Virus record (IMG/VR): IMGVR_UViG_3300048854_000081
Coordinates: 192,001 to 256,000 of that record
DNA from: a virus
Taxonomy: Duplodnaviria; Caudoviricetes
Direction: 5' to 3' (one strand)
Length of the DNA: 64,000 nt
Shown: one piece after another, positions 3,901-46,010 of the stretch
How the letters are laid out: each line of letters opens with the position of its first letter
Numbering within the stretch: the first letter of the stretch is position 1
Notes under the pieces: model-generated
What the model was told of the DNA's origin: nothing
The model's input: only the letters and a program-made list of their open reading frames with translations
Database searches by the model: none
Translations under genes and position numbers: made by a program

Positions 3901-4458
3901 ATGCAAAATTACTGGTTTTCCTCCGATCAACATTACTTCCATAAGAATATCCTTAAGTTCACCGATAGACCCTACGAAAACGTAGAAGATATGAACGAGG
4001 CTTTCATTGAGTGGAACAACGCCAATGTGGGCGAAAAGGATGTTGTCTGGAATCTAGGTGATTTCAGCTTCGGTGACATTGAACAAACAAAGTCTGTCCT
4101 AAGACGCCTCAAAGGTCAACAGAACCTAATCCTAGGTAACCATTGTCACAATCTATTCAATCATAGGAATGAGTTACTAAACGAAAAACTCTTTATGTCA
4201 ATTCAACATTATAGAGAATTACGTTTTGATAAGACGCGTCTTGTTCTATCACATTACCCAATGCGTTCGTGGAGTGGTTCCAATAGAGGATCGATCCAAC
4301 TGTTCGGCCATGTTCACGGTCACCTAGCTCCTTATGGTAAGTCCGTAGATGTGGGCGTGGATAGCGAATGGATCACGGGATCATATGCTGGTAGAGCATT
4401 TCATCTAGATGAAATTCTAGACTACATGAAAGATAGGCAGATTGAAAATGATTACTGA
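3901..4458 (+). CDS. Calcineurin-like metallophosphoesterase
   Basis: SDQHYFH, LGDF, GNH, SHYP, FGHVH motifs. Confidence 0.9.
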   Translation: MQNYWFSSDQHYFHKNILKFTDRPYENVEDMNEAFIEWNNANVGEKDVVWNLGDFSFGDIEQTKSVLRRLKGQQNLILGNHCHNLFNHRNELLNEKLFMSIQHYRELRFDKTRLVLSHYPMRSWSGSNRGSIQLFGHVHGHLAPYGKSVDVGVDSEWITGSYAGRAFHLDEILDYMKDRQIENDY

Positions 4459-4882
4459 TGTAGTTTATCTAGAGAAGCCTAAACGGGCTTGTGGTAGTAC
4501 CAGTTACTTAATGCAAATGGTAGCTGAAAACCCAAATGTAGATTTTTATGTTATATCTATAACGAAGTCTGTGACTGAAAATATAACCAGATCATATCGA
4601 CATTTAAAAAATATTAATGTAGTTCATCATAATAGAGTACAAGGTTTTGCCAATAAACTGATTGGCCTTAGGGAATATATTCTCATATTTCTCGATTGGA
4701 ACATGAAGAATGAGGAACATCGTCAGACTGTCGAGTTATATGCGGCACATGCACGAGCGCTAAATTTTGGGATTATTGTAGAGGATACGAGTAAAATGAA
4801 GGCAGACGTAGGCTTAGTTTATAGTCCGTATATTCCTCTTATGAAAGTTAAAAGTTATACAAAACATTGGGATATAATATGA
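4448..4882 (+). CDS. Hypothetical protein with degenerate P-loop-like start and capsid-like C-terminal motif
   Basis: KPKRACGSTS; DVGLVYSPYIPLM. Confidence 0.6.
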   Translation: MITDVVYLEKPKRACGSTSYLMQMVAENPNVDFYVISITKSVTENITRSYRHLKNINVVHHNRVQGFANKLIGLREYILIFLDWNMKNEEHRQTVELYAAHARALNFGIIVEDTSKMKADVGLVYSPYIPLMKVKSYTKHWDII

Positions 4883-11091: not shown

Positions 11092-11331
11092 ATGAATGAT
11101 GCACCACAGATTGTAACAGAAGAAGTAACACCAGAAGTTGTTGTTGAAACAAACGTAAAGCAGACTCTAAAGCGTAATTCATTGGGTCAGTTTTATCGTA
11201 AGCTTGGACGTGTAGTTGTTCCGCATGGTCAGACTTACAATGTTGGTAGCAATCGTACTAAGGCCGCGCTTTCGGTTATTAAGAAAGCTGCGAAGAGAGC
11301 ACGACGCGCTGCTAAGCGTTTGGGTCAGTAA
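11092..11331 (+). CDS. Small basic hypothetical protein
   Basis: Lys/Arg-rich C-terminus. Confidence 0.6.
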   Translation: MNDAPQIVTEEVTPEVVVETNVKQTLKRNSLGQFYRKLGRVVVPHGQTYNVGSNRTKAALSVIKKAAKRARRAAKRLGQ

Positions 11332-36930: not shown

Positions 36931-37638
36931 TCACATGTATTCTATATGCCATCCATATGCTTTACTATTCTGGCCTATTGGTATAGATTTGTTTAAGAAA
37001 TTCATTATGGTGGATATTGGGAGGTTGTTATTCTTGCAAAATTTTATGAATCCACCATGGACTATAAACTCTTCACCATTTGGTGAGATAAATTTTATAG
37101 TTCTAGCTCTTGGGTTCTTTTCGCCAGACTGAAGACCAATTTGAGCCCTTCTATTATTCTCAATTTGTTCTTGAGTTCGTTTTTGTCCTCTAAGTTTTAA
37201 ACTACGCTTTCTTAAGGTTTCCTCCGAGTGTTTGAATCCTAAGTTGACCCCCTTAACACCTTTACGCGGTTTACCCTTTAGTGCTTCAGATATTCTTTTC
37301 TTAGTTTCTTCTGAACGCGTTCTTCCTTTATGAAAGGTTTTTGTTGCTAAAGCATTCTGTTTTCTTATCCATCCAAACCTTTTATTATTCGATCTTTGTC
37401 CTCTTGGACCTATTGACATTGTATGTAAAGCATATTTCAATTTAACATTGTCAGGATAAATTTTTACCAACAGTTGATGCGCAACATAATGTTCTTCAGC
37501 AGTCAATTTAATTATGTTATCGTTGTCATTCGTACCACCTATACATTTGGGTATGATATGATGCTTTTCACTATAACCAATTAGTTCTCTATCTTTCGCT
37601 CTTGCTATTAACTTATCATAATGGTTTTTGTAATTCAT
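36931..37638 (-). mobile_element. HNH homing endonuclease with NUMOD3 repeats (MobE-like)
   Basis: EKHHIIPKCIGG..DNIIKLTAEEHYVAH; SEETKKRIS. Confidence 0.92.
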
Positions 37639-39084: not shown

Positions 39085-39109
39085 AAACCCAGCTTCGGTT
39101 GGGTTTTTT
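39085..39109 (+). terminator. Terminator ending tRNA cluster 5
   Basis: aaacccagc-ttcg-gttgggtttttt. Confidence 0.85.
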
Positions 39110-39161: not shown

Positions 39162-39857
39162 ATGAATCCATATCTCTACAAATTTAAATCTCATGCCAAG
39201 AATAATGTTGGTAGAGATTTTGCTGTGGGTGATATTCATGGATATTATTTTGTCCTTGAAGGACAGCTTGAAGAGCTAGGATTCGATTATGAAAATGATA
39301 GACTCTTTGCACTTGGAGACTTGATTGATCGTGGTCCTGAGTCTAAGAGAGCTATAGAATTTATTAAGAAATCATGGTTCTATGGGATGAAGGGAAATCA
39401 TGAGGCTATGATGTGGGAATACCACATGGGCCATTCTTGGCTGAATTCTTATTCAATACATGGGGGTGATTGGTTCATCGATCTACCACAGGAAGAGCGC
39501 CAGAAATACGTTGATGCACTCACGGAACTTCCTAACATTGTCGAGGTTGAAACGGTCAATGGTCGTATTGGTCTGGTCCACGGCGATTGTCCTGTGGATA
39601 GCTGGGAGGTATTTAAAAAATATCACCCACGTTATGTCCACGATTCCTTGTGGTCATTTAATAGCTATAACCTACTTAAATATGGTGCTGGTAGACCAGT
39701 GATCAGAGATATTGATTATGTAATTCATGGTCATTCCTCTGTCAAAGAACCAGAGAATTATGGTAACCGTTTCTACATTGATACGGGTGCCTTTGCTAAA
39801 CGTTTAGGTATTATTGAAATTAATAATCCATTAGGGATACTTGTTTTACATCCGTAA
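39162..39857 (+). CDS. Ser/Thr protein phosphatase (lambda NinI/PphA family)
   Basis: GDIHG, GDLIDRG, GNHE, HGH, IDTG. Confidence 0.92.
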   Translation: MNPYLYKFKSHAKNNVGRDFAVGDIHGYYFVLEGQLEELGFDYENDRLFALGDLIDRGPESKRAIEFIKKSWFYGMKGNHEAMMWEYHMGHSWLNSYSIHGGDWFIDLPQEERQKYVDALTELPNIVEVETVNGRIGLVHGDCPVDSWEVFKKYHPRYVHDSLWSFNSYNLLKYGAGRPVIRDIDYVIHGHSSVKEPENYGNRFYIDTGAFAKRLGIIEINNPLGILVLHP

Positions 39858-39890: not shown

Positions 39891-40118
39891 ATGGATAACC
39901 AACATAAACTAATTAAGGGCTATAGAGATTTATCAGCAGAAGAAATCGCCCTGATGAACAAGATCAAGCAAGAGCTTGGCACCAAACTTGAAGAGGTCGT
40001 AAATGAATTACTTGCTTTACCTACTACTGATAAGCGTTGGGTATCTATTGGTAAAACAGATTTGCAGACTGGTCTTATGGCGTTGGTTAGATCGATAGCC
40101 CAGCCTACATCATTCTAA
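39891..40118 (+). CDS. acb2: Anti-CBASS cyclic-nucleotide sponge Acb2
   Basis: [19 protein letters not shown]...[21 protein letters not shown]. Confidence 0.9.
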
Positions 40119-40119
40119 A

Positions 40120-40596
40120 ATGGATGAAATGTCAGAATGGGAATTAAATATATCAGCATCTTTAGCCGCTGAAATCGTAGCTGAAGTTGACAAGGTATTC
40201 AAGAATGAATTGGCCGACATAATGCATAAACAATTAAAATCTGATATGAAAGATATTGGATTCAATCTTCAATCCATTTACGATATGTTTATCCATAAGG
40301 AATTTTACACTCTTAAGTTTGAAATAAGTATTGTGCGTGAAAACCGTGAATATACTATCTATCTTCAGTCATATGATAGAAGACTTAGAATTGAGCACGG
40401 TAAAATTACCTTATCAGAAACAGAGCAATCTGCGGTTGAGGCTAAGGAAATTGTCCAAGAACGTTTTAATATTCTCATTAAAGAAAACCCGGATCAATAT
40501 AAGAAATTGTTCAATGATCTAATGGCTTCAATTGAAAATTCTTCACGACAATCATTAGATGAACTGTTTTACGGTACTGTAAGTTACATGAACTGA
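40120..40596 (+). CDS. Hypothetical protein with capsid-like N-terminal helix
   Basis: LAAEIVAEVD vs MCP ISAEIVQEVD. Confidence 0.65.
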   Translation: MDEMSEWELNISASLAAEIVAEVDKVFKNELADIMHKQLKSDMKDIGFNLQSIYDMFIHKEFYTLKFEISIVRENREYTIYLQSYDRRLRIEHGKITLSETEQSAVEAKEIVQERFNILIKENPDQYKKLFNDLMASIENSSRQSLDELFYGTVSYMN

Positions 40597-40820
40597 CCAA
40601 AATCATCCCACCATCAAACCGCCCTTGTGGCGGTTTTTTGTTGCCTAAAATTTGAGATATCAAAGACTTACAGAAATTTTTCAAAATGGGACCAATTTTT
40701 ATGAATATTTTTTCCTTATAAATCAAGCACTTAGATGGGTGCTGTGATGGAAATGTAAAAAATATTTCAACCCTACTAAATAATATTTGCAAATTTTAAA
40801 TAATTATTTACGGGAGTGCC

Positions 40821-41753
40821 TTGATGGACGAATTATTGAAAAAGCTGATGGAATCGGAAGTTTTGTCCGATGAATCAAAGACCGAACTAACCGAAGCCTT
40901 TCAGGCCAAGATTGCTGAAGCTGTAGAGCTAGCAACCAAGGAAACTGAAGTCAAGGTTCGTGCTGAATTGACCGAACAGTTTGTAGAAGAAAAGCAGGCA
41001 ATTGTAGAAGCCCTAGATACTAAGGCCGAACAGTTCCTACGTACGCATCTTGAAGAACTTCAAGAAGACATTGCTACCTTCCGTGATCTAGAAGCCGATT
41101 TCGCCGCTCGTTTGGTAGAAGAAAAGCAGGCAATTGCTGAAACTGTTAAGCGTGACATGGCCGAACTAATCGACCAGCTAGATGCATTTAATACCCAGTG
41201 CCTAGAAGAAGAATTTGCCGAACTAGAAGACTCCATTAAGGAAGTCAAGCAACTACAGTTCGGTAAGGAAATCTTCGAAGCCGTAGCAAAGACCTTCGAA
41301 TCGAAGTTCACTGATAGCAACGAAACTCTAAACCAGTTGAAGGAAGCTAAGGCTGAACTAGAACAGACGCAGGTAACTCTTGCTGAAGTAAACAAGTCTC
41401 TACACGCTGTGAAGCGTGACCAGAAGTTGAGCGAAGTCCTAGAGCCTCTACAGGGTCTATCTCGCGAAATCATGGAAACCATCTTGAAGACTGCTCCTAC
41501 GGAGAAGTTGGAAGAAACCTATGAGAAGTTCATAGGCCGTGTTCTGCACGATGCAAGTAATAAAAAGTCGGAGAAGGAAAGTGCTCAGGCATCTGTACTA
41601 GCCGAAGGAAATGAAGAAACCGTAGTTACTGAAGGTACCGTTGTTGTTACGGGTGATACCCCAGCAATTAATGAAACTGAAGTAACAGACCGCGCAAAAC
41701 TATCTGAGTCGGTATTAAGCCGCTTGAATAAGCTTGCCGGTATTGATGACTAA
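40821..41753 (+). CDS. Prohead core scaffold (gp22-like)
   Basis: Acidic coiled coil upstream of MCP, FGKEIFEA, KLAGI. Confidence 0.85.
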   Translation: MMDELLKKLMESEVLSDESKTELTEAFQAKIAEAVELATKETEVKVRAELTEQFVEEKQAIVEALDTKAEQFLRTHLEELQEDIATFRDLEADFAARLVEEKQAIAETVKRDMAELIDQLDAFNTQCLEEEFAELEDSIKEVKQLQFGKEIFEAVAKTFESKFTDSNETLNQLKEAKAELEQTQVTLAEVNKSLHAVKRDQKLSEVLEPLQGLSREIMETILKTAPTEKLEETYEKFIGRVLHDASNKKSEKESAQASVLAEGNEETVVTEGTVVVTGDTPAINETEVTDRAKLSESVLSRLNKLAGIDD

Positions 41754-41780: not shown

Positions 41781-43184
41781 ATGGCTGAAGACTTAAAACT
41801 ATTGACCGAAAATTGGAGCGAAACAAAGGCCGCTCTAACCCAAGGTCTTCCAAAATCCAAGGTAGGTATCGTCGAGACCGTTCTAGAAAACGCTCGTAAG
41901 AACCTTCTTGAAACTGCAACTCCGGGTGCTATCGGTGCTGGCGACATTGCCAACTTCCGTAAGACTCTACTTCCACTTATCCGTCGTGTGATTCCGGGTA
42001 CAATTGCTACCGAAATCGTTGGTGTTCAGCCAATGTCCGGTCCAGTTGCTCAGATTTTCACCCTTCGTTATAAGTACGAAGAAAACATGGCTCATGATGA
42101 CACCCGTTCGCAGTTCGGTGGTTATGACATCGTAGCTGGTGACGAAATGTTTGGTAATGCCAAGCCTGTCCGTCAGTTCTACTCTGGTAACACAGGCGTA
42201 GCTCAGGCTGCTGGTGCTTCTGGTTTTGCTGCTGCTGGTACAGACGGCACTTCCGAGCCTGCTAACATCACTGGCACTGCCACTGGTGAAGGTTGGGCTT
42301 CTGATCCAAACGTAACACATTACGACACAGGTACCACGCTTTACGGTAACCCAGTCGGTGGTTCGCTATACGGTGGTAACGGTTCGTTCCTAGAAGGTTC
42401 TGGTGGTCGTAAGGCTTCGCTAGAATTGATTTCTCAGGCTATCGAAGCTAAGTCCCGTAAGCTACAGGCTTCATGGACAATCGAAGCTATGCAGGACTTG
42501 AACAGCCAGCATGGTCTAGATATCGAAACCGAAATGACCAAGGGTATCTCGGCTGAAATCGTACAGGAAGTTGACGCTGAAGTTATCAACGACTTGCTAG
42601 CTCTTGCTGGTACAGTTCGCGTATTTGACCTTGCTGCTACATCTGGTACTGCCTATTCGCCAACCTTCATCGGTGACCGTCTAGCTGGTCTAGGTCCAGT
42701 GATCAATGCCGTTGCTAACGAAATCGCTCGTAAGACCCGTCGTGGTGCTGGCAACTTCATCGTTGTCTCCCCAATGATCGTGTCTGCTCTACAGAGCGCT
42801 GCTAAGTCCGTGTTTGCTCCTGCTGTTGAGGGTTCGTTCAAGTCCCCAACTAACACCTACCTAGCTGGTACACTAAACGGTAACATCAAGGTTTACTCCT
42901 ACTTGTGGAATCAGGCTCAGCCGGGTTCTTCGGCTCCTGCCGGTACTGACAAGATTCTTGTCGGTTACAAGGGTGGTAATGGCGAAACTGACGCAGGTTA
43001 CTTCTACTGCCCATACATCCCATTGATGTCAACTGGTACCATCATCAACCCAGTAACAATGCAGCCAGTAGTAAGCTTGATGACTCGCTATGGTAAGGCT
43101 ATCTTCACTGATACCCGCACCTCGCTAGGTAACTCGGCTGACTACTACGGTAAGATCAACGTTGTGAACCTAGACTTCGTTTAA
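41781..43184 (+). CDS. Major capsid protein (gp23-like)
   Basis: GVQPMSGPV.QIF.LR, AKSRKL.A.WT.E..QDL, YCPYIPL, TRYG. Confidence 0.97.
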   Translation: MAEDLKLLTENWSETKAALTQGLPKSKVGIVETVLENARKNLLETATPGAIGAGDIANFRKTLLPLIRRVIPGTIATEIVGVQPMSGPVAQIFTLRYKYEENMAHDDTRSQFGGYDIVAGDEMFGNAKPVRQFYSGNTGVAQAAGASGFAAAGTDGTSEPANITGTATGEGWASDPNVTHYDTGTTLYGNPVGGSLYGGNGSFLEGSGGRKASLELISQAIEAKSRKLQASWTIEAMQDLNSQHGLDIETEMTKGISAEIVQEVDAEVINDLLALAGTVRVFDLAATSGTAYSPTFIGDRLAGLGPVINAVANEIARKTRRGAGNFIVVSPMIVSALQSAAKSVFAPAVEGSFKSPTNTYLAGTLNGNIKVYSYLWNQAQPGSSAPAGTDKILVGYKGGNGETDAGYFYCPYIPLMSTGTIINPVTMQPVVSLMTRYGKAIFTDTRTSLGNSADYYGKINVVNLDFV

Positions 43185-43207: not shown

Positions 43208-43240
43208 AAAAGAAACCCCGCGAAAGCGGGGTTTTTCTTT
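43208..43240. terminator. Bidirectional terminator
   Basis: aaaccccgc-gaaa-gcggggttttt. Confidence 0.9.
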
Positions 43241-44720
43241 ATACGAGGTATCCATGTTGTTTCAATAGAATATTCATGTTAGCTTTGGGGATCGATGATC
43301 CAAAAGCCCTGTAGAATTTTGTAGATAATAGCATACCATACGCCAAAGAGAAGGTGAAAGGATTGGTGCTGACCGTATTGAAGTATTGATTATAGCGATC
43401 AATCATTCCATTAATCTTATTAAATCCGTCCTTCATTTCCGTAGTAAATGTTTTACATCCGCCTTGGGTTCTGAACCACGTACTCAAATAAACACCTAAA
43501 TATTTGACAATTAAGGTTTCATCGATGTCAGTACTATCGAACGATGCTGCGATAAATTGTGTAGCCCACTGTTTTCGCCTGTAGGTATTGTCTAGTGTAT
43601 CTTTCGATCTGGTGTCAAACCAAACATCATCCACAAAATCATCAGCCATAGGCAATGCCGAAACAGTACCGGGAGTTTGAAGCTGACCAATCGTTCGCTT
43701 GTAAGCTGTCACGGCACTCTTCAATTCCTTGTAGGCAACATTTGTTAAACCACCTGTCTTAACGATTTGTTCGATCTGTGGAAAGGTTGTGGCAAACAAA
43801 GTTTTGTTTTTCAATACATCACTACGGAACTTCTTGTTTGTACCCATCAGCTTAGCAAAAATCTCAGGTGGGAAGTAAGGAACGCATACTTCCATGGTAT
43901 TAGGGTTCTTGAGGATGAGGTCACCGACTGCTGAATAAAAATTAGAATTATTCAGAGCCGTGGTTAGTGCTTCGTAATTCTTGGTATCCATGATTTCCTT
44001 GAATCGAGTAGTATACGAACCACTACGAAGTTGGTCAATCAAGGTTTTGGAAGTGATCGTCTTAGGAAGAACGTCATCGACATCACCGCCCGCATTGACG
44101 AACATGTCTAGGATGTAGTCCAGACGACGCGGAGAAACATGCTTACGATGTTCTAACGGGATGGTGTTCCACCATTCAATAGCAACCTTCGCAGTTGTTG
44201 CACCATACTTCATGCTGAAGAACTGTAAGCTTGGCTTGTTTTCAACATCTACGATGACCTGAAAGCGATCTAGCTGGGCTGGATCAAGCTTCTCGACATC
44301 ATAGACCATAGTCGTGTCATCTTCATCATCTGGATTGATAGCCGCCCAAATAACTTTAAGATTATTGAACTTCTTACCATTGATGGATTTGAACTGAATC
44401 AGTTCCATGACAGCATTGCGCACTTTCTTAGCTGAGCGGTTAAACTCATCAAAGAAGATAGCTTCAACTTCATCATTCTGAAAAGCTTGTGGACGGACTA
44501 GACCAAGGTACTTGTTACCATTCTCATCAGTCATTTCCTTGGGAACACCAATGAAATCAACCCACGGGTCCATCGTCGATGCACTGAAATATAACCATTT
44601 CATCCCATTACGGGTGAATGCCTCTGTGATCATAGCCGTCTTGCCGACGCCATGTCCACCCTTCATTAATACGTTGTAATTGTTCTTTAACCAGAAATCT
44701 AACTTTTGTTCTGTAATCAT
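43239..44720 (-). CDS. MoxR/dynein-like AAA+ ATPase
   Basis: GGHGVGKT, FFDEFNR, AAINP, DPAQLDRF, SPR. Confidence 0.9.
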   Translation of the reverse strand: MITEQKLDFWLKNNYNVLMKGGHGVGKTAMITEAFTRNGMKWLYFSASTMDPWVDFIGVPKEMTDENGNKYLGLVRPQAFQNDEVEAIFFDEFNRSAKKVRNAVMELIQFKSINGKKFNNLKVIWAAINPDDEDDTTMVYDVEKLDPAQLDRFQVIVDVENKPSLQFFSMKYGATTAKVAIEWWNTIPLEHRKHVSPRRLDYILDMFVNAGGDVDDVLPKTITSKTLIDQLRSGSYTTRFKEIMDTKNYEALTTALNNSNFYSAVGDLILKNPNTMEVCVPYFPPEIFAKLMGTNKKFRSDVLKNKTLFATTFPQIEQIVKTGGLTNVAYKELKSAVTAYKRTIGQLQTPGTVSALPMADDFVDDVWFDTRSKDTLDNTYRRKQWATQFIAASFDSTDIDETLIVKYLGVYLSTWFRTQGGCKTFTTEMKDGFNKINGMIDRYNQYFNTVSTNPFTFSLAYGMLLSTKFYRAFGSSIPKANMNILLKQHGYLV

Positions 44721-44789
44721 AGCCCTTCACTTGTTTTATGGTGTGATACAACCTATACTGTAGCACGTCCAAACGAGATAATTCAACCG

Positions 44790-46010
44790 ATGGTTACAGA
44801 AATCAGTACAGAAGAGTACATGGAGTTAACTAACGTACTCAAACATCACCACAACATTTTCTACAAGATGTGGCTACTTGGTAGACCACAATACGACGAC
44901 ACTCTCAAGACTGCTGCGGTTACCTTCGATAGAGAAGGCCATTGTATCCGGTTCTCAGTTAACCCCACGTTTTGGGCTGACAAGACTCTGGTACAGAAGG
45001 CATTCATTATCTCACATGAGTGCCAACATGTCATTCGTGAGCATGGAAGTCGATTCATAAAAGGTAACCATGATGTCGCCAACGTTGCAATGGATATCAC
45101 GATCAATCACGATCTGGTGAAATATTACGAATTCGTTCGTAGCGAAATCGATCCTGAAAGTAACTACTGCTGGATCGATACCATATTCAAAGACCCATCC
45201 AAGGTCTTATCCGATCAATCGTTTGAATACTATTACAATTTACTAATCAACGATCCAGAAAATTCCAATACTGCTAACCTCGTAGATGACCATGAGGGAT
45301 TCGGTGAGCTAAGCCATTCAGATGCCGAGGCAATCGCTGATATCATACAGGACCAATTCTCTCCGGATGAACTGGATGAAGCGCAAAAGATCAAGACGGA
45401 TGCTGGTCATGGTCCGGGTGGTCGTTCTACAATTGTAGATAATAAGCCTCCGGTCATTAAGAAAAAATGGGAGACGGTCGTAAAGAATTGGAGTAAGAAG
45501 TATCTAATTCCTAAGGAAAAGGAAGAGTCGCAATGGGTTCATGCTCATCGCCGTCATTCTCTATTGGATGATGGTCTGTTTCTTCCTTCCGATATGGAAG
45601 TAGACCTTCATGATATTGATAAGACCAAGATCGACGTTCTATTCTTTTTGGATACGTCAGGGTCATGTAGGCATCTAGCACAGCGTTTCTTTACGGCAGC
45701 AAAGTCATTGGACCCAAGGCGATTCGAACTCCATCTGTATTGTTTCGATACAAAGGTTTATCCTACGACATTGGAGTCCAGAAAGCTTTACGGATTCGGT
45801 GGTACATATTTTCATCCTATTGGTTATGTAGTCGAACACATGATTAAGGCAAAGCAACTTAAGGATTATGTGGTCTTCGTTCTAACCGATGGGGATGGAA
45901 GTAACCTAACAATGCGTGATCCGAGCAAGTGGCATTGGTTCCTATCTACAAATTATACGAATTACATTCCGAAGGGATGTAATATCCACAAATTATCTAA
46001 TTACGAATAA
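44790..46010 (+). CDS. Metallopeptidase-like + vWA protein (DUF2201-like)
   Basis: HECQH (HExxH), LDTSGS, GGT, LTDG. Confidence 0.85.
   Translation: MVTEISTEEYMELTNVLKHHHNIFYKMWLLGRPQYDDTLKTAAVTFDREGHCIRFSVNPTFWADKTLVQKAFIISHECQHVIREHGSRFIKGNHDVANVAMDITINHDLVKYYEFVRSEIDPESNYCWIDTIFKDPSKVLSDQSFEYYYNLLINDPENSNTANLVDDHEGFGELSHSDAEAIADIIQDQFSPDELDEAQKIKTDAGHGPGGRSTIVDNKPPVIKKKWETVVKNWSKKYLIPKEKEESQWVHAHRRHSLLDDGLFLPSDMEVDLHDIDKTKIDVLFFLDTSGSCRHLAQRFFTAAKSLDPRRFELHLYCFDTKVYPTTLESRKLYGFGGTYFHPIGYVVEHMIKAKQLKDYVVFVLTDGDGSNLTMRDPSKWHWFLSTNYTNYIPKGCNIHKLSNYE

Follow-up and report, generated by a model that had tools for sequence, protein, structure and literature searches.

A phage accessory protein begins with a copy of the spine helix of the phage's own major capsid protein

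Many bacterial defence systems fire on phage capsid proteins, and the most conserved capsid elements are hard for phages to change for escape. A phage that encoded a copy of such an element apart from its capsid genes would have a simple counter-measure, for which the tail-tube mimic DSAD1 is the only published parallel. One small gene in a 64,000-nt stretch of a tailed phage genome (the window; positions 192,001 to 256,000 of IMG/VR record IMGVR_UViG_3300048854_000081, which comprises 350,036 bp at 41.8% G+C and includes 23 tRNA genes) raises the question of whether a phage makes such a copy, and for what. The original prediction had described its product, here ORF158, as an accessory protein that starts with a copy of a helix of the phage's own major capsid protein (MCP), and had proposed a decoy or competitor of a capsid-sensing receptor, encoded in an anti-defence neighbourhood.

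The gene is a real open reading frame on the plus strand and encodes 158 aa, as predicted. It lies 3' of a phosphatase gene and an acb2-like gene and 5' of the head genes (window coordinates, unless given for the genome):

39085..39106, plus strand: terminator-like hairpin and T run, upstream boundary of the phosphatase-acb2-ORF158 unit
39162..39857, plus strand: PPP-family Ser/Thr phosphatase, PrpA/PrpB-like, first gene of the unit
39891..40118, plus strand: acb2-like gene, 75 aa (PF24729 Acb2/Tad1 hairpin, 60.5 bits; cut-off 27)
40120..40596, plus strand: ORF158 (P0001), 158 aa, pI 4.8, with an MCP-like N-terminal helix, a beta-sheet core, and the C-terminal module of its family
40616..40636, plus strand: terminator-like hairpin and T run directly 3' of ORF158, parting it from the scaffold and MCP genes
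40824..41753, plus strand: acidic coiled-coil protein in scaffold position (from position and composition only)
41781..43184, plus strand: MCP, gp23 type (Pfam PF07068, 328 bits)

The ATG of ORF158 comes one base after the TAA stop of the acb2-like gene, and ORF158 is translationally coupled to this gene and to the PrpA-like phosphatase within a terminator-bounded unit. The best likeness of the phosphatase is to PrpA/PrpB (NF008516, E 2.3e-34, which is under the equivalog cut-off). The unit is followed by a gap of 227 nt, the acidic coiled-coil gene, which is directly 5' of the MCP gene in relatives too, and the MCP gene. Genome-wide there is a single Gp23-family gene (PF07068), and no gp24-like vertex paralogue is detectable by PF07068. 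A minus-strand MoxR-like AAA ATPase and a DUF2201 putative metallopeptidase-domain protein are encoded between the MCP and tail sheath genes (43239-46010), and an HNH/NUMOD3 homing-endonuclease-like gene (36931-37638, minus strand) lies within the tRNA and accessory region.

Promoter motifs were read by eye. The sequence ATAAATA recurs 5' of the sheath gene and other structural genes and is likely a late promoter core; it stands shortly 5' of the genes at 392, 14707, 22125, 22903, 34054, 46093, 49750, 50570, 60477, 62146, and 62759. Promoters resembling TTGACA-N17-TATAAT precede positions 11092, 28987, 31472, 32272, and 37749, and the T4 late promoter TATAAATA is not enriched within the window. 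Upstream of the phosphatase-acb2-ORF158 unit, we saw neither the ATAAATA late motif nor a strong sigma-70 match. From these motifs, which are the sole basis for its timing, we infer that ORF158 is probably made before the late capsid operon.

The likeness between ORF158 and the MCP involves the following features:

40135..40212, plus strand: MCP-like helix of ORF158, residues 6-31, signature E.E...L.AEI..E[VI]D.....[ED]L
40168..40191, plus strand: 24-nt core with the codons for AEIVAEVD of ORF158, matching 42552-42575 at the DNA level
42519..42596, plus strand: MCP segment 247-272, the P-domain spine helix of gp23-type capsids (by alignment)

Residues 8-31 of ORF158 are identical to MCP residues 249-272 at 10 of 24 positions (BLASTP E 0.041). 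Taken by itself, this single pairwise match is not significant but marginal: shuffle tests give p ~0.01, and the same Smith-Waterman score against the MCP is reached by six of the 83 other ORFs in the window. An HMM of the MCP family, built from 82 related MCPs, likewise scores ORF158 at only E 1.8.

The likeness was accepted because it is replicated in an orthologue from another phage. A phmmer search of 1.84 billion representatives returned a sole relative, a 159-aa protein (P0004) from a metagenomic phage contig with 29% identity over its full length, whose gene stands in the order phosphatase, P0004 gene, scaffold, gp23, and sheath. Of 1946 ORFs, P0004 has the best score with the 82-MCP HMM outside the MCPs themselves (E 0.0057). 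A scan of the 24,736 Pfam families gave it a single match below E 0.01, to Gp23 (E 6.8e-4, 19.6 bits), with residues 3-63 aligned to profile positions 167-223. Conversely, a 36-column HMM of the two N-termini places 82 of 82 MCPs at ranks 3-84 (best E 8e-6), always through the same MCP segment, and the first other ORF follows at E = 1. None of 300 column-shuffled versions of this HMM scored above 8.4 bits, compared with 21.7 observed. In six frames of the 350-kb genome the N-terminal profile matches only itself and the MCP (E 1.6e-4), in the genomes of relatives it again matches only MCPs, and hhalign aligns the N-terminal helix with the MCP over 28 columns (P 1.8e-6, probability 90%). Searched against PDB sequences, this profile had no match at E 10 or lower, which means that T4 gp23 itself has diverged too far to be picked up by it.

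The likeness extends to the DNA. Between 40168-40191 and 42552-42575, 21 of 24 bases are alike, with no other match within the window, and all seven residues shared in this core use the same codon (about 0.25% by chance, given the codon usage of the window). In the P0004 phage the motif is retained as AEIRAEID; its codons there differ from those of the MCP, which indicates that it is kept at the protein level. The N-terminus of ORF158 thus copies the spine helix of the phage's own MCP, and the likeness is real and specific. The proposed resemblance is thereby upheld, and the motif is conserved in the closest homologue. Its significance over shuffled sequences stands for the profile and stays marginal for the lone pairwise match.

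The copied segment is among the most conserved stretches of the MCP family, with E249, E251, S257, I260, E263, D265, E267, D271, and L272 invariant in 82 sequences. It aligns with the T4-type stretch SGILATEIMLEINREVVD, around residues 283-308 of T4 gp23, and counting from G292 fits this stretch exactly. By our own count, each of ORF158 and P0004 has the MCP residue at nine of 17 invariant or near-invariant positions, with four to five more conservative. Their N-termini share 12 residues, eight of which are identical and two similar to such positions, the acidic ones included (again our own count). The N-terminus is also the best conserved part of the two proteins (36% identity versus 27-29% overall). 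We saw no prohead-protease site (L/I-x-E) in the ORF158 helix by eye.

The relationship to the capsid protein ends with this helix. The signature common to ORF158 and the gp23-type spine helix spans 26-28 residues and takes in invariant acidic and hydrophobic positions; the N-terminus of ORF158 is helical in the model, as in the capsid. For the other residues, at least 110, profiles indicate no relation to the HK97 fold, and hhalign detects no similarity between core and MCP (P 0.71), in line with the original impression by eye. Membership of the Gp23 family (PF07068) is not reached by ORF158, which has no match at E <= 1, or by P0004, which scores 19.6 bits against a gathering cut-off of 24.4 bits. 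Of the 376 profile positions of the HK97-type domain, P0004 covers 167-223 only, and the hhalign alignment is confident at columns 6-33 only. By these profiles, ORF158 appears to be neither a capsid protein nor a cut-down MCP paralogue. That the entire protein might be a shortened MCP was rejected, as a forced long alignment gains no confidence beyond the helix.

We modelled the rest of the protein and traced its relatives, which fall into a family with these features:

40255..40593, plus strand: core domain of ORF158, residues 46-158, predicted alpha-beta5-alpha-alpha (AF2 model)
40492..40593, plus strand: C-terminal module of ORF158, residues 125-158, consensus [YF]N.[LI][LI]..[VI]E[DN]....[SP]I.E[FL]T.G.[FIV].Y
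73177-78903 of the genome (L095:1178-6904): tandem array of 13 small diverged module ORFs, detected with an HMM of ORF158-type proteins

In the AF2 model of the full-length protein (pLDDT 69.6), a long N-terminal helix is predicted with moderate confidence (pLDDT 60-67), and the core modelled alone forms an alpha-beta5-alpha-alpha fold (pLDDT 80.4, pTM 0.74). Neither the full nor the core model has a significant match in the PDB (Foldseek, VIA), BFVD, or ESM Atlas, and Foldseek returned none at E <= 0.001. The best structural match of both models is p32/gC1qR/Mam33 (PDB: 7te3, 3jv1; rmsd 3.5-3.7 over 81-87 residues), which is likewise acidic and has a sheet followed by C-terminal helices, although the Z of 5.1-5.4 is below the level for a fold call according to the notes of the tool. 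An Atlas feature search with ORF158 was uninformative (top score 0.79), and a complex prediction of ORF158 with the MCP, run without controls, scored 0.00 and counts neither way. Among PHROGs, ORF158 has only a match to phrog_5093 of unknown function (E 0.074), and the T4 prohead core and internal proteins (gp67, gp68, IPs) have no sequence relation to it.

An HMM from ORF158-type proteins matched the array at the C-termini of its ORFs, ten times with E between 1.8e-6 and 0.07 and twice with E of 0.14-0.44. What they have in common is a module at the very end of proteins of 100-200 aa, ORF158 included (E 2.4e-16), in which an alignment of 20 sequences leaves a single invariant residue, the Glu of the E[DN] pair. 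A regular expression found no exact common C-terminal tag; the module emerged only via HMM. With a model of the module, we found 15 copies in the genome, 10 in a complete 340-kb relative, and 7 in a half-complete relative; the same search found none in a phage with a 60%-identical MCP. Thirteen of the 15 lie in the tandem array, and one copy outside it is at 348534-348983 of the genome. After the array come a 272-aa ORF and the gene of a 390-aa AAA+ ATPase (PF00004, E 1e-12; genome 79647-80819), and in three phages (here, L097, and L098) the main array leads to a 250-270-aa ORF and this conserved 390-aa ATPase. The small proteins of the family and the array match no Pfam family. Outside the module, array members and ORF158 have no detectable common sequence, and the fold was modelled for the ORF158 subgroup only.

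On this sequence evidence, the body of ORF158 belongs to an unannotated, clade-restricted family in which variable N-terminal parts are joined to a constant C-terminal module of about 30 residues, a helix and tail. The link between the tandem array and ORF158 is new, and the 15-copy family behind the body had been missed by the original prediction. One odd gene is thus tied to a large unannotated family with a constant module and tandem arrays beside an AAA+ ATPase. The module is not MCP-like (hhalign P 0.57). A weak BLAST line had suggested that the N-terminal helix duplicates the C-terminal module of the family, which was rejected (hhalign P 0.32). In a relative with an 89%-identical MCP, three family paralogues (two on the plus and one on the minus strand; L004:7985-9296) lie between a 419-aa gene 3' of the MCP gene and the MoxR-like AAA ATPase gene; the MCP-to-ATPase gap in the window is 54 nt only.

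The helix is patchily distributed within this family. Word-based searches of 5.8 billion proteins returned only four ORF158-type members, tblastn against 50,697 phage records found no ORF158 homologue, and neither did pattern scans of IMG/VR and JGI metagenomes. Two of the four orthologues have the helix (the source phage and L001), a third has only its second half (AELD; L003), and it is absent in the fourth (L006). None of 30 paralogues inspected has a convincing MCP-like stretch. Because it is patchy in orthologues, absent in paralogues, and unlike the family's own module, the helix is an addition that only one subgroup of this diversifying family has received.

The slot that ORF158 occupies is hypervariable among phages with MCPs that are 86-90% identical. 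The slot gene is absent in two relatives (L005 and L007); in one, an unrelated gene on the minus strand takes its place, and in RAS14 there is none. Where orthologues exist, they have diverged to 27-31% identity, while the MCP is near 89%. Operon partners, separation from the head genes, the variable slot, and this divergence mark ORF158 as an accessory gene under diversifying pressure. The anti-defence neighbourhood that had been proposed agrees with these results, as the acb2-like and PrpA-like neighbours, the unit's own terminators, the lack of ATAAATA, and the hypervariable slot all fit an accessory role. In all four phages with a slot gene (window, L001, L003, and L006), a PrpA/PrpB-like phosphatase gene is directly 5' of the ORF158-family gene; the two often overlap or abut, and in the window the short acb2-like gene alone intervenes. 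This arrangement suggests a functional pairing.

What might a capsid helix do at the head of such a protein? ORF158 would be a non-structural, fast-evolving, two-part accessory protein, its body (residues about 46-158) a predicted small acidic alpha/beta domain from a clade-restricted multigene family and its N-terminus a spine-helix copy, with descent or gene conversion from the MCP gene as the likely source. A decoy is a plausible reading of the sequence data. We tentatively propose that ORF158 is a bait on a handle: made from a unit outside the late capsid operon, and probably earlier, the protein would display the capsid helix in trans and tie up a factor that recognises this helix on new, unassembled MCP, and the constant C-terminal module would contribute a function common to the whole family. 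We rank a mimic function first because both carriers keep the MCP-invariant residues, which points to selection on MCP-likeness.

As the target of the helix we favour an immune protein of the host that senses capsids. The acb2 neighbour and published precedents make such a sensor, reading unassembled MCP, attractive: several defence systems bind MCPs directly (PMC12578639; bioRxiv 10.64898/2026.01.04.697583), CBASS is escaped through MCP mutations (bioRxiv 10.1101/2023.05.21.541620), and DSR2 is trapped by DSAD1, a phage protein that imitates the tail tube protein (PMC10973363). Three points keep our confidence in a bait low. The helix is dispensable within the family, and L005 and L007 lack the slot gene. 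The identical codons in this phage could reflect a recent conversion event with the MCP gene, 2.4 kb away, as donor, which would keep the likeness without selection. Avs-type MCP sensors recognise extended surfaces by shape complementarity (bioRxiv 10.64898/2026.01.04.697583), for which a single helix may be too little.

The same observations leave room for a helix that is a captured or converted piece of the MCP and now a structural or oligomerisation helix, in a protein whose function is unrelated to the capsid and performed by core and module. Our confidence in this reading is equally low. It would explain why the helix occurs in only two to three of four orthologues and in none of 30 paralogues, why the parts conserved family-wide are the core and the C-terminal module, and why the AF2 confidence for the core is higher without the helix; the 21 of 24 bases shared with a gene 2.4 kb away point to DNA exchange. 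It accounts less well for two carriers at 29% identity that both keep MCP-invariant residues, with different codons in L001, a pattern that looks like selection for MCP-likeness rather than for any amphipathic helix. Even as a recombination relic, the helix would still be a case of phage orphan genes acquiring pieces of core genes.

A role in the phage's own head assembly is unlikely. Here ORF158 would modulate assembly or MCP folding, with the free helix competing for capsomer contacts or for the chaperonin route. T4 gp31-bypass mutations map to the gp23 spine helix, which lends relevance to a GroES-like co-chaperonin gene of this phage (genome 327445-327705; Pfam Cpn10, 47.8 bits; T4 counterpart gp31), and in relatives family genes lie on either side of the scaffold-MCP operon. 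Against such a role, a terminator parts ORF158 from the scaffold and MCP genes and groups it with non-structural genes, its core is unlike any head protein, and close relatives with nearly identical MCPs lack the slot gene, so that it is not needed for assembly.

It is very improbable that ORF158 is a weapon against co-infecting related phages whose helix poisons gp23-type capsid assembly: in its favour, the imitated stretch varies hardly at all among 82 related MCPs and the family is fast-evolving and clade-restricted, but the phage's own MCP carries the same helix, and avoiding self-harm would need an unexplained immunity mechanism. That two acidic amphipathic helices resemble each other by chance is hardly credible and already disfavoured, for the weak pairwise E of 0.04, the six window ORFs of equal score, and the E of 1.8 for ORF158 with the MCP HMM are outweighed by the independent replication in P0004, the 300 shuffles that came nowhere close, the hhalign P of 1.8e-6, and the match in DNA.

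For the bait that we propose, known systems offer partial parallels. The Gol peptide of T4 gp23 is recognised by the Lit protease with EF-Tu, and it lies in the N-terminal part of gp23, outside the spine helix. Gol is a precedent for a short stretch of a gp23-type MCP that is read by a defence protein, although Gol acts from within the MCP and ORF158 is a separate protein. CapRel and Lit, the capsid-triggered defences named in the original prediction, are not known to recognise the spine helix. DSAD1 of SPbeta-like phages has a concept in common with the proposed ORF158 bait, the blocking of a sensor by an accessory protein made to look like the structural protein that triggers it (PMC10973363). 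The two have no sequence or fold relation, DSAD1 imitates a different structural protein, and any sensor blocked by ORF158 is putative. Acb2/Tad-type sponges resemble ORF158 in being small, accessory, encoded in the same operon, and variably present among relatives, but ORF158 has no match to PF24729 and nothing suggests nucleotide binding. None of the libraries that we searched contains ORF158 or its family, and the papers that we found describe no capsid-helix add-on of this kind; DSAD1 is the closest published concept.

A bolder extension of the bait reading would take in the whole family. The clade might keep an expandable kit of a common C-terminal handle and variable front-end baits, in which the bait of ORF158 would be the phage's own capsid spine helix and a captured sensor would possibly be handed to a common phage machine; ORF158 would then be the first described decoy for capsid-sensing immunity. 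We regard this as a long shot.

A second ORF of the window also resembles a piece of the capsid protein. In an orphan ORF of 144 aa (4448-4882, plus strand), residues 118-132 KADVGLVYSPYIPLM match MCP residues 402-416 ETDAGYFYCPYIPLM with 9 of 15 identical (pairwise BLASTP E 5e-4; Pfam Gp23 E 0.078), and there is no DNA-level match between this ORF and the MCP gene. Genome-wide, no other non-MCP ORF scores better with the MCP HMM (E 0.036), and two relatives encode homologues of the ORF (E about 1e-5). The likeness is not significant alone, but it may mark a second add-on made from a piece of the capsid protein.
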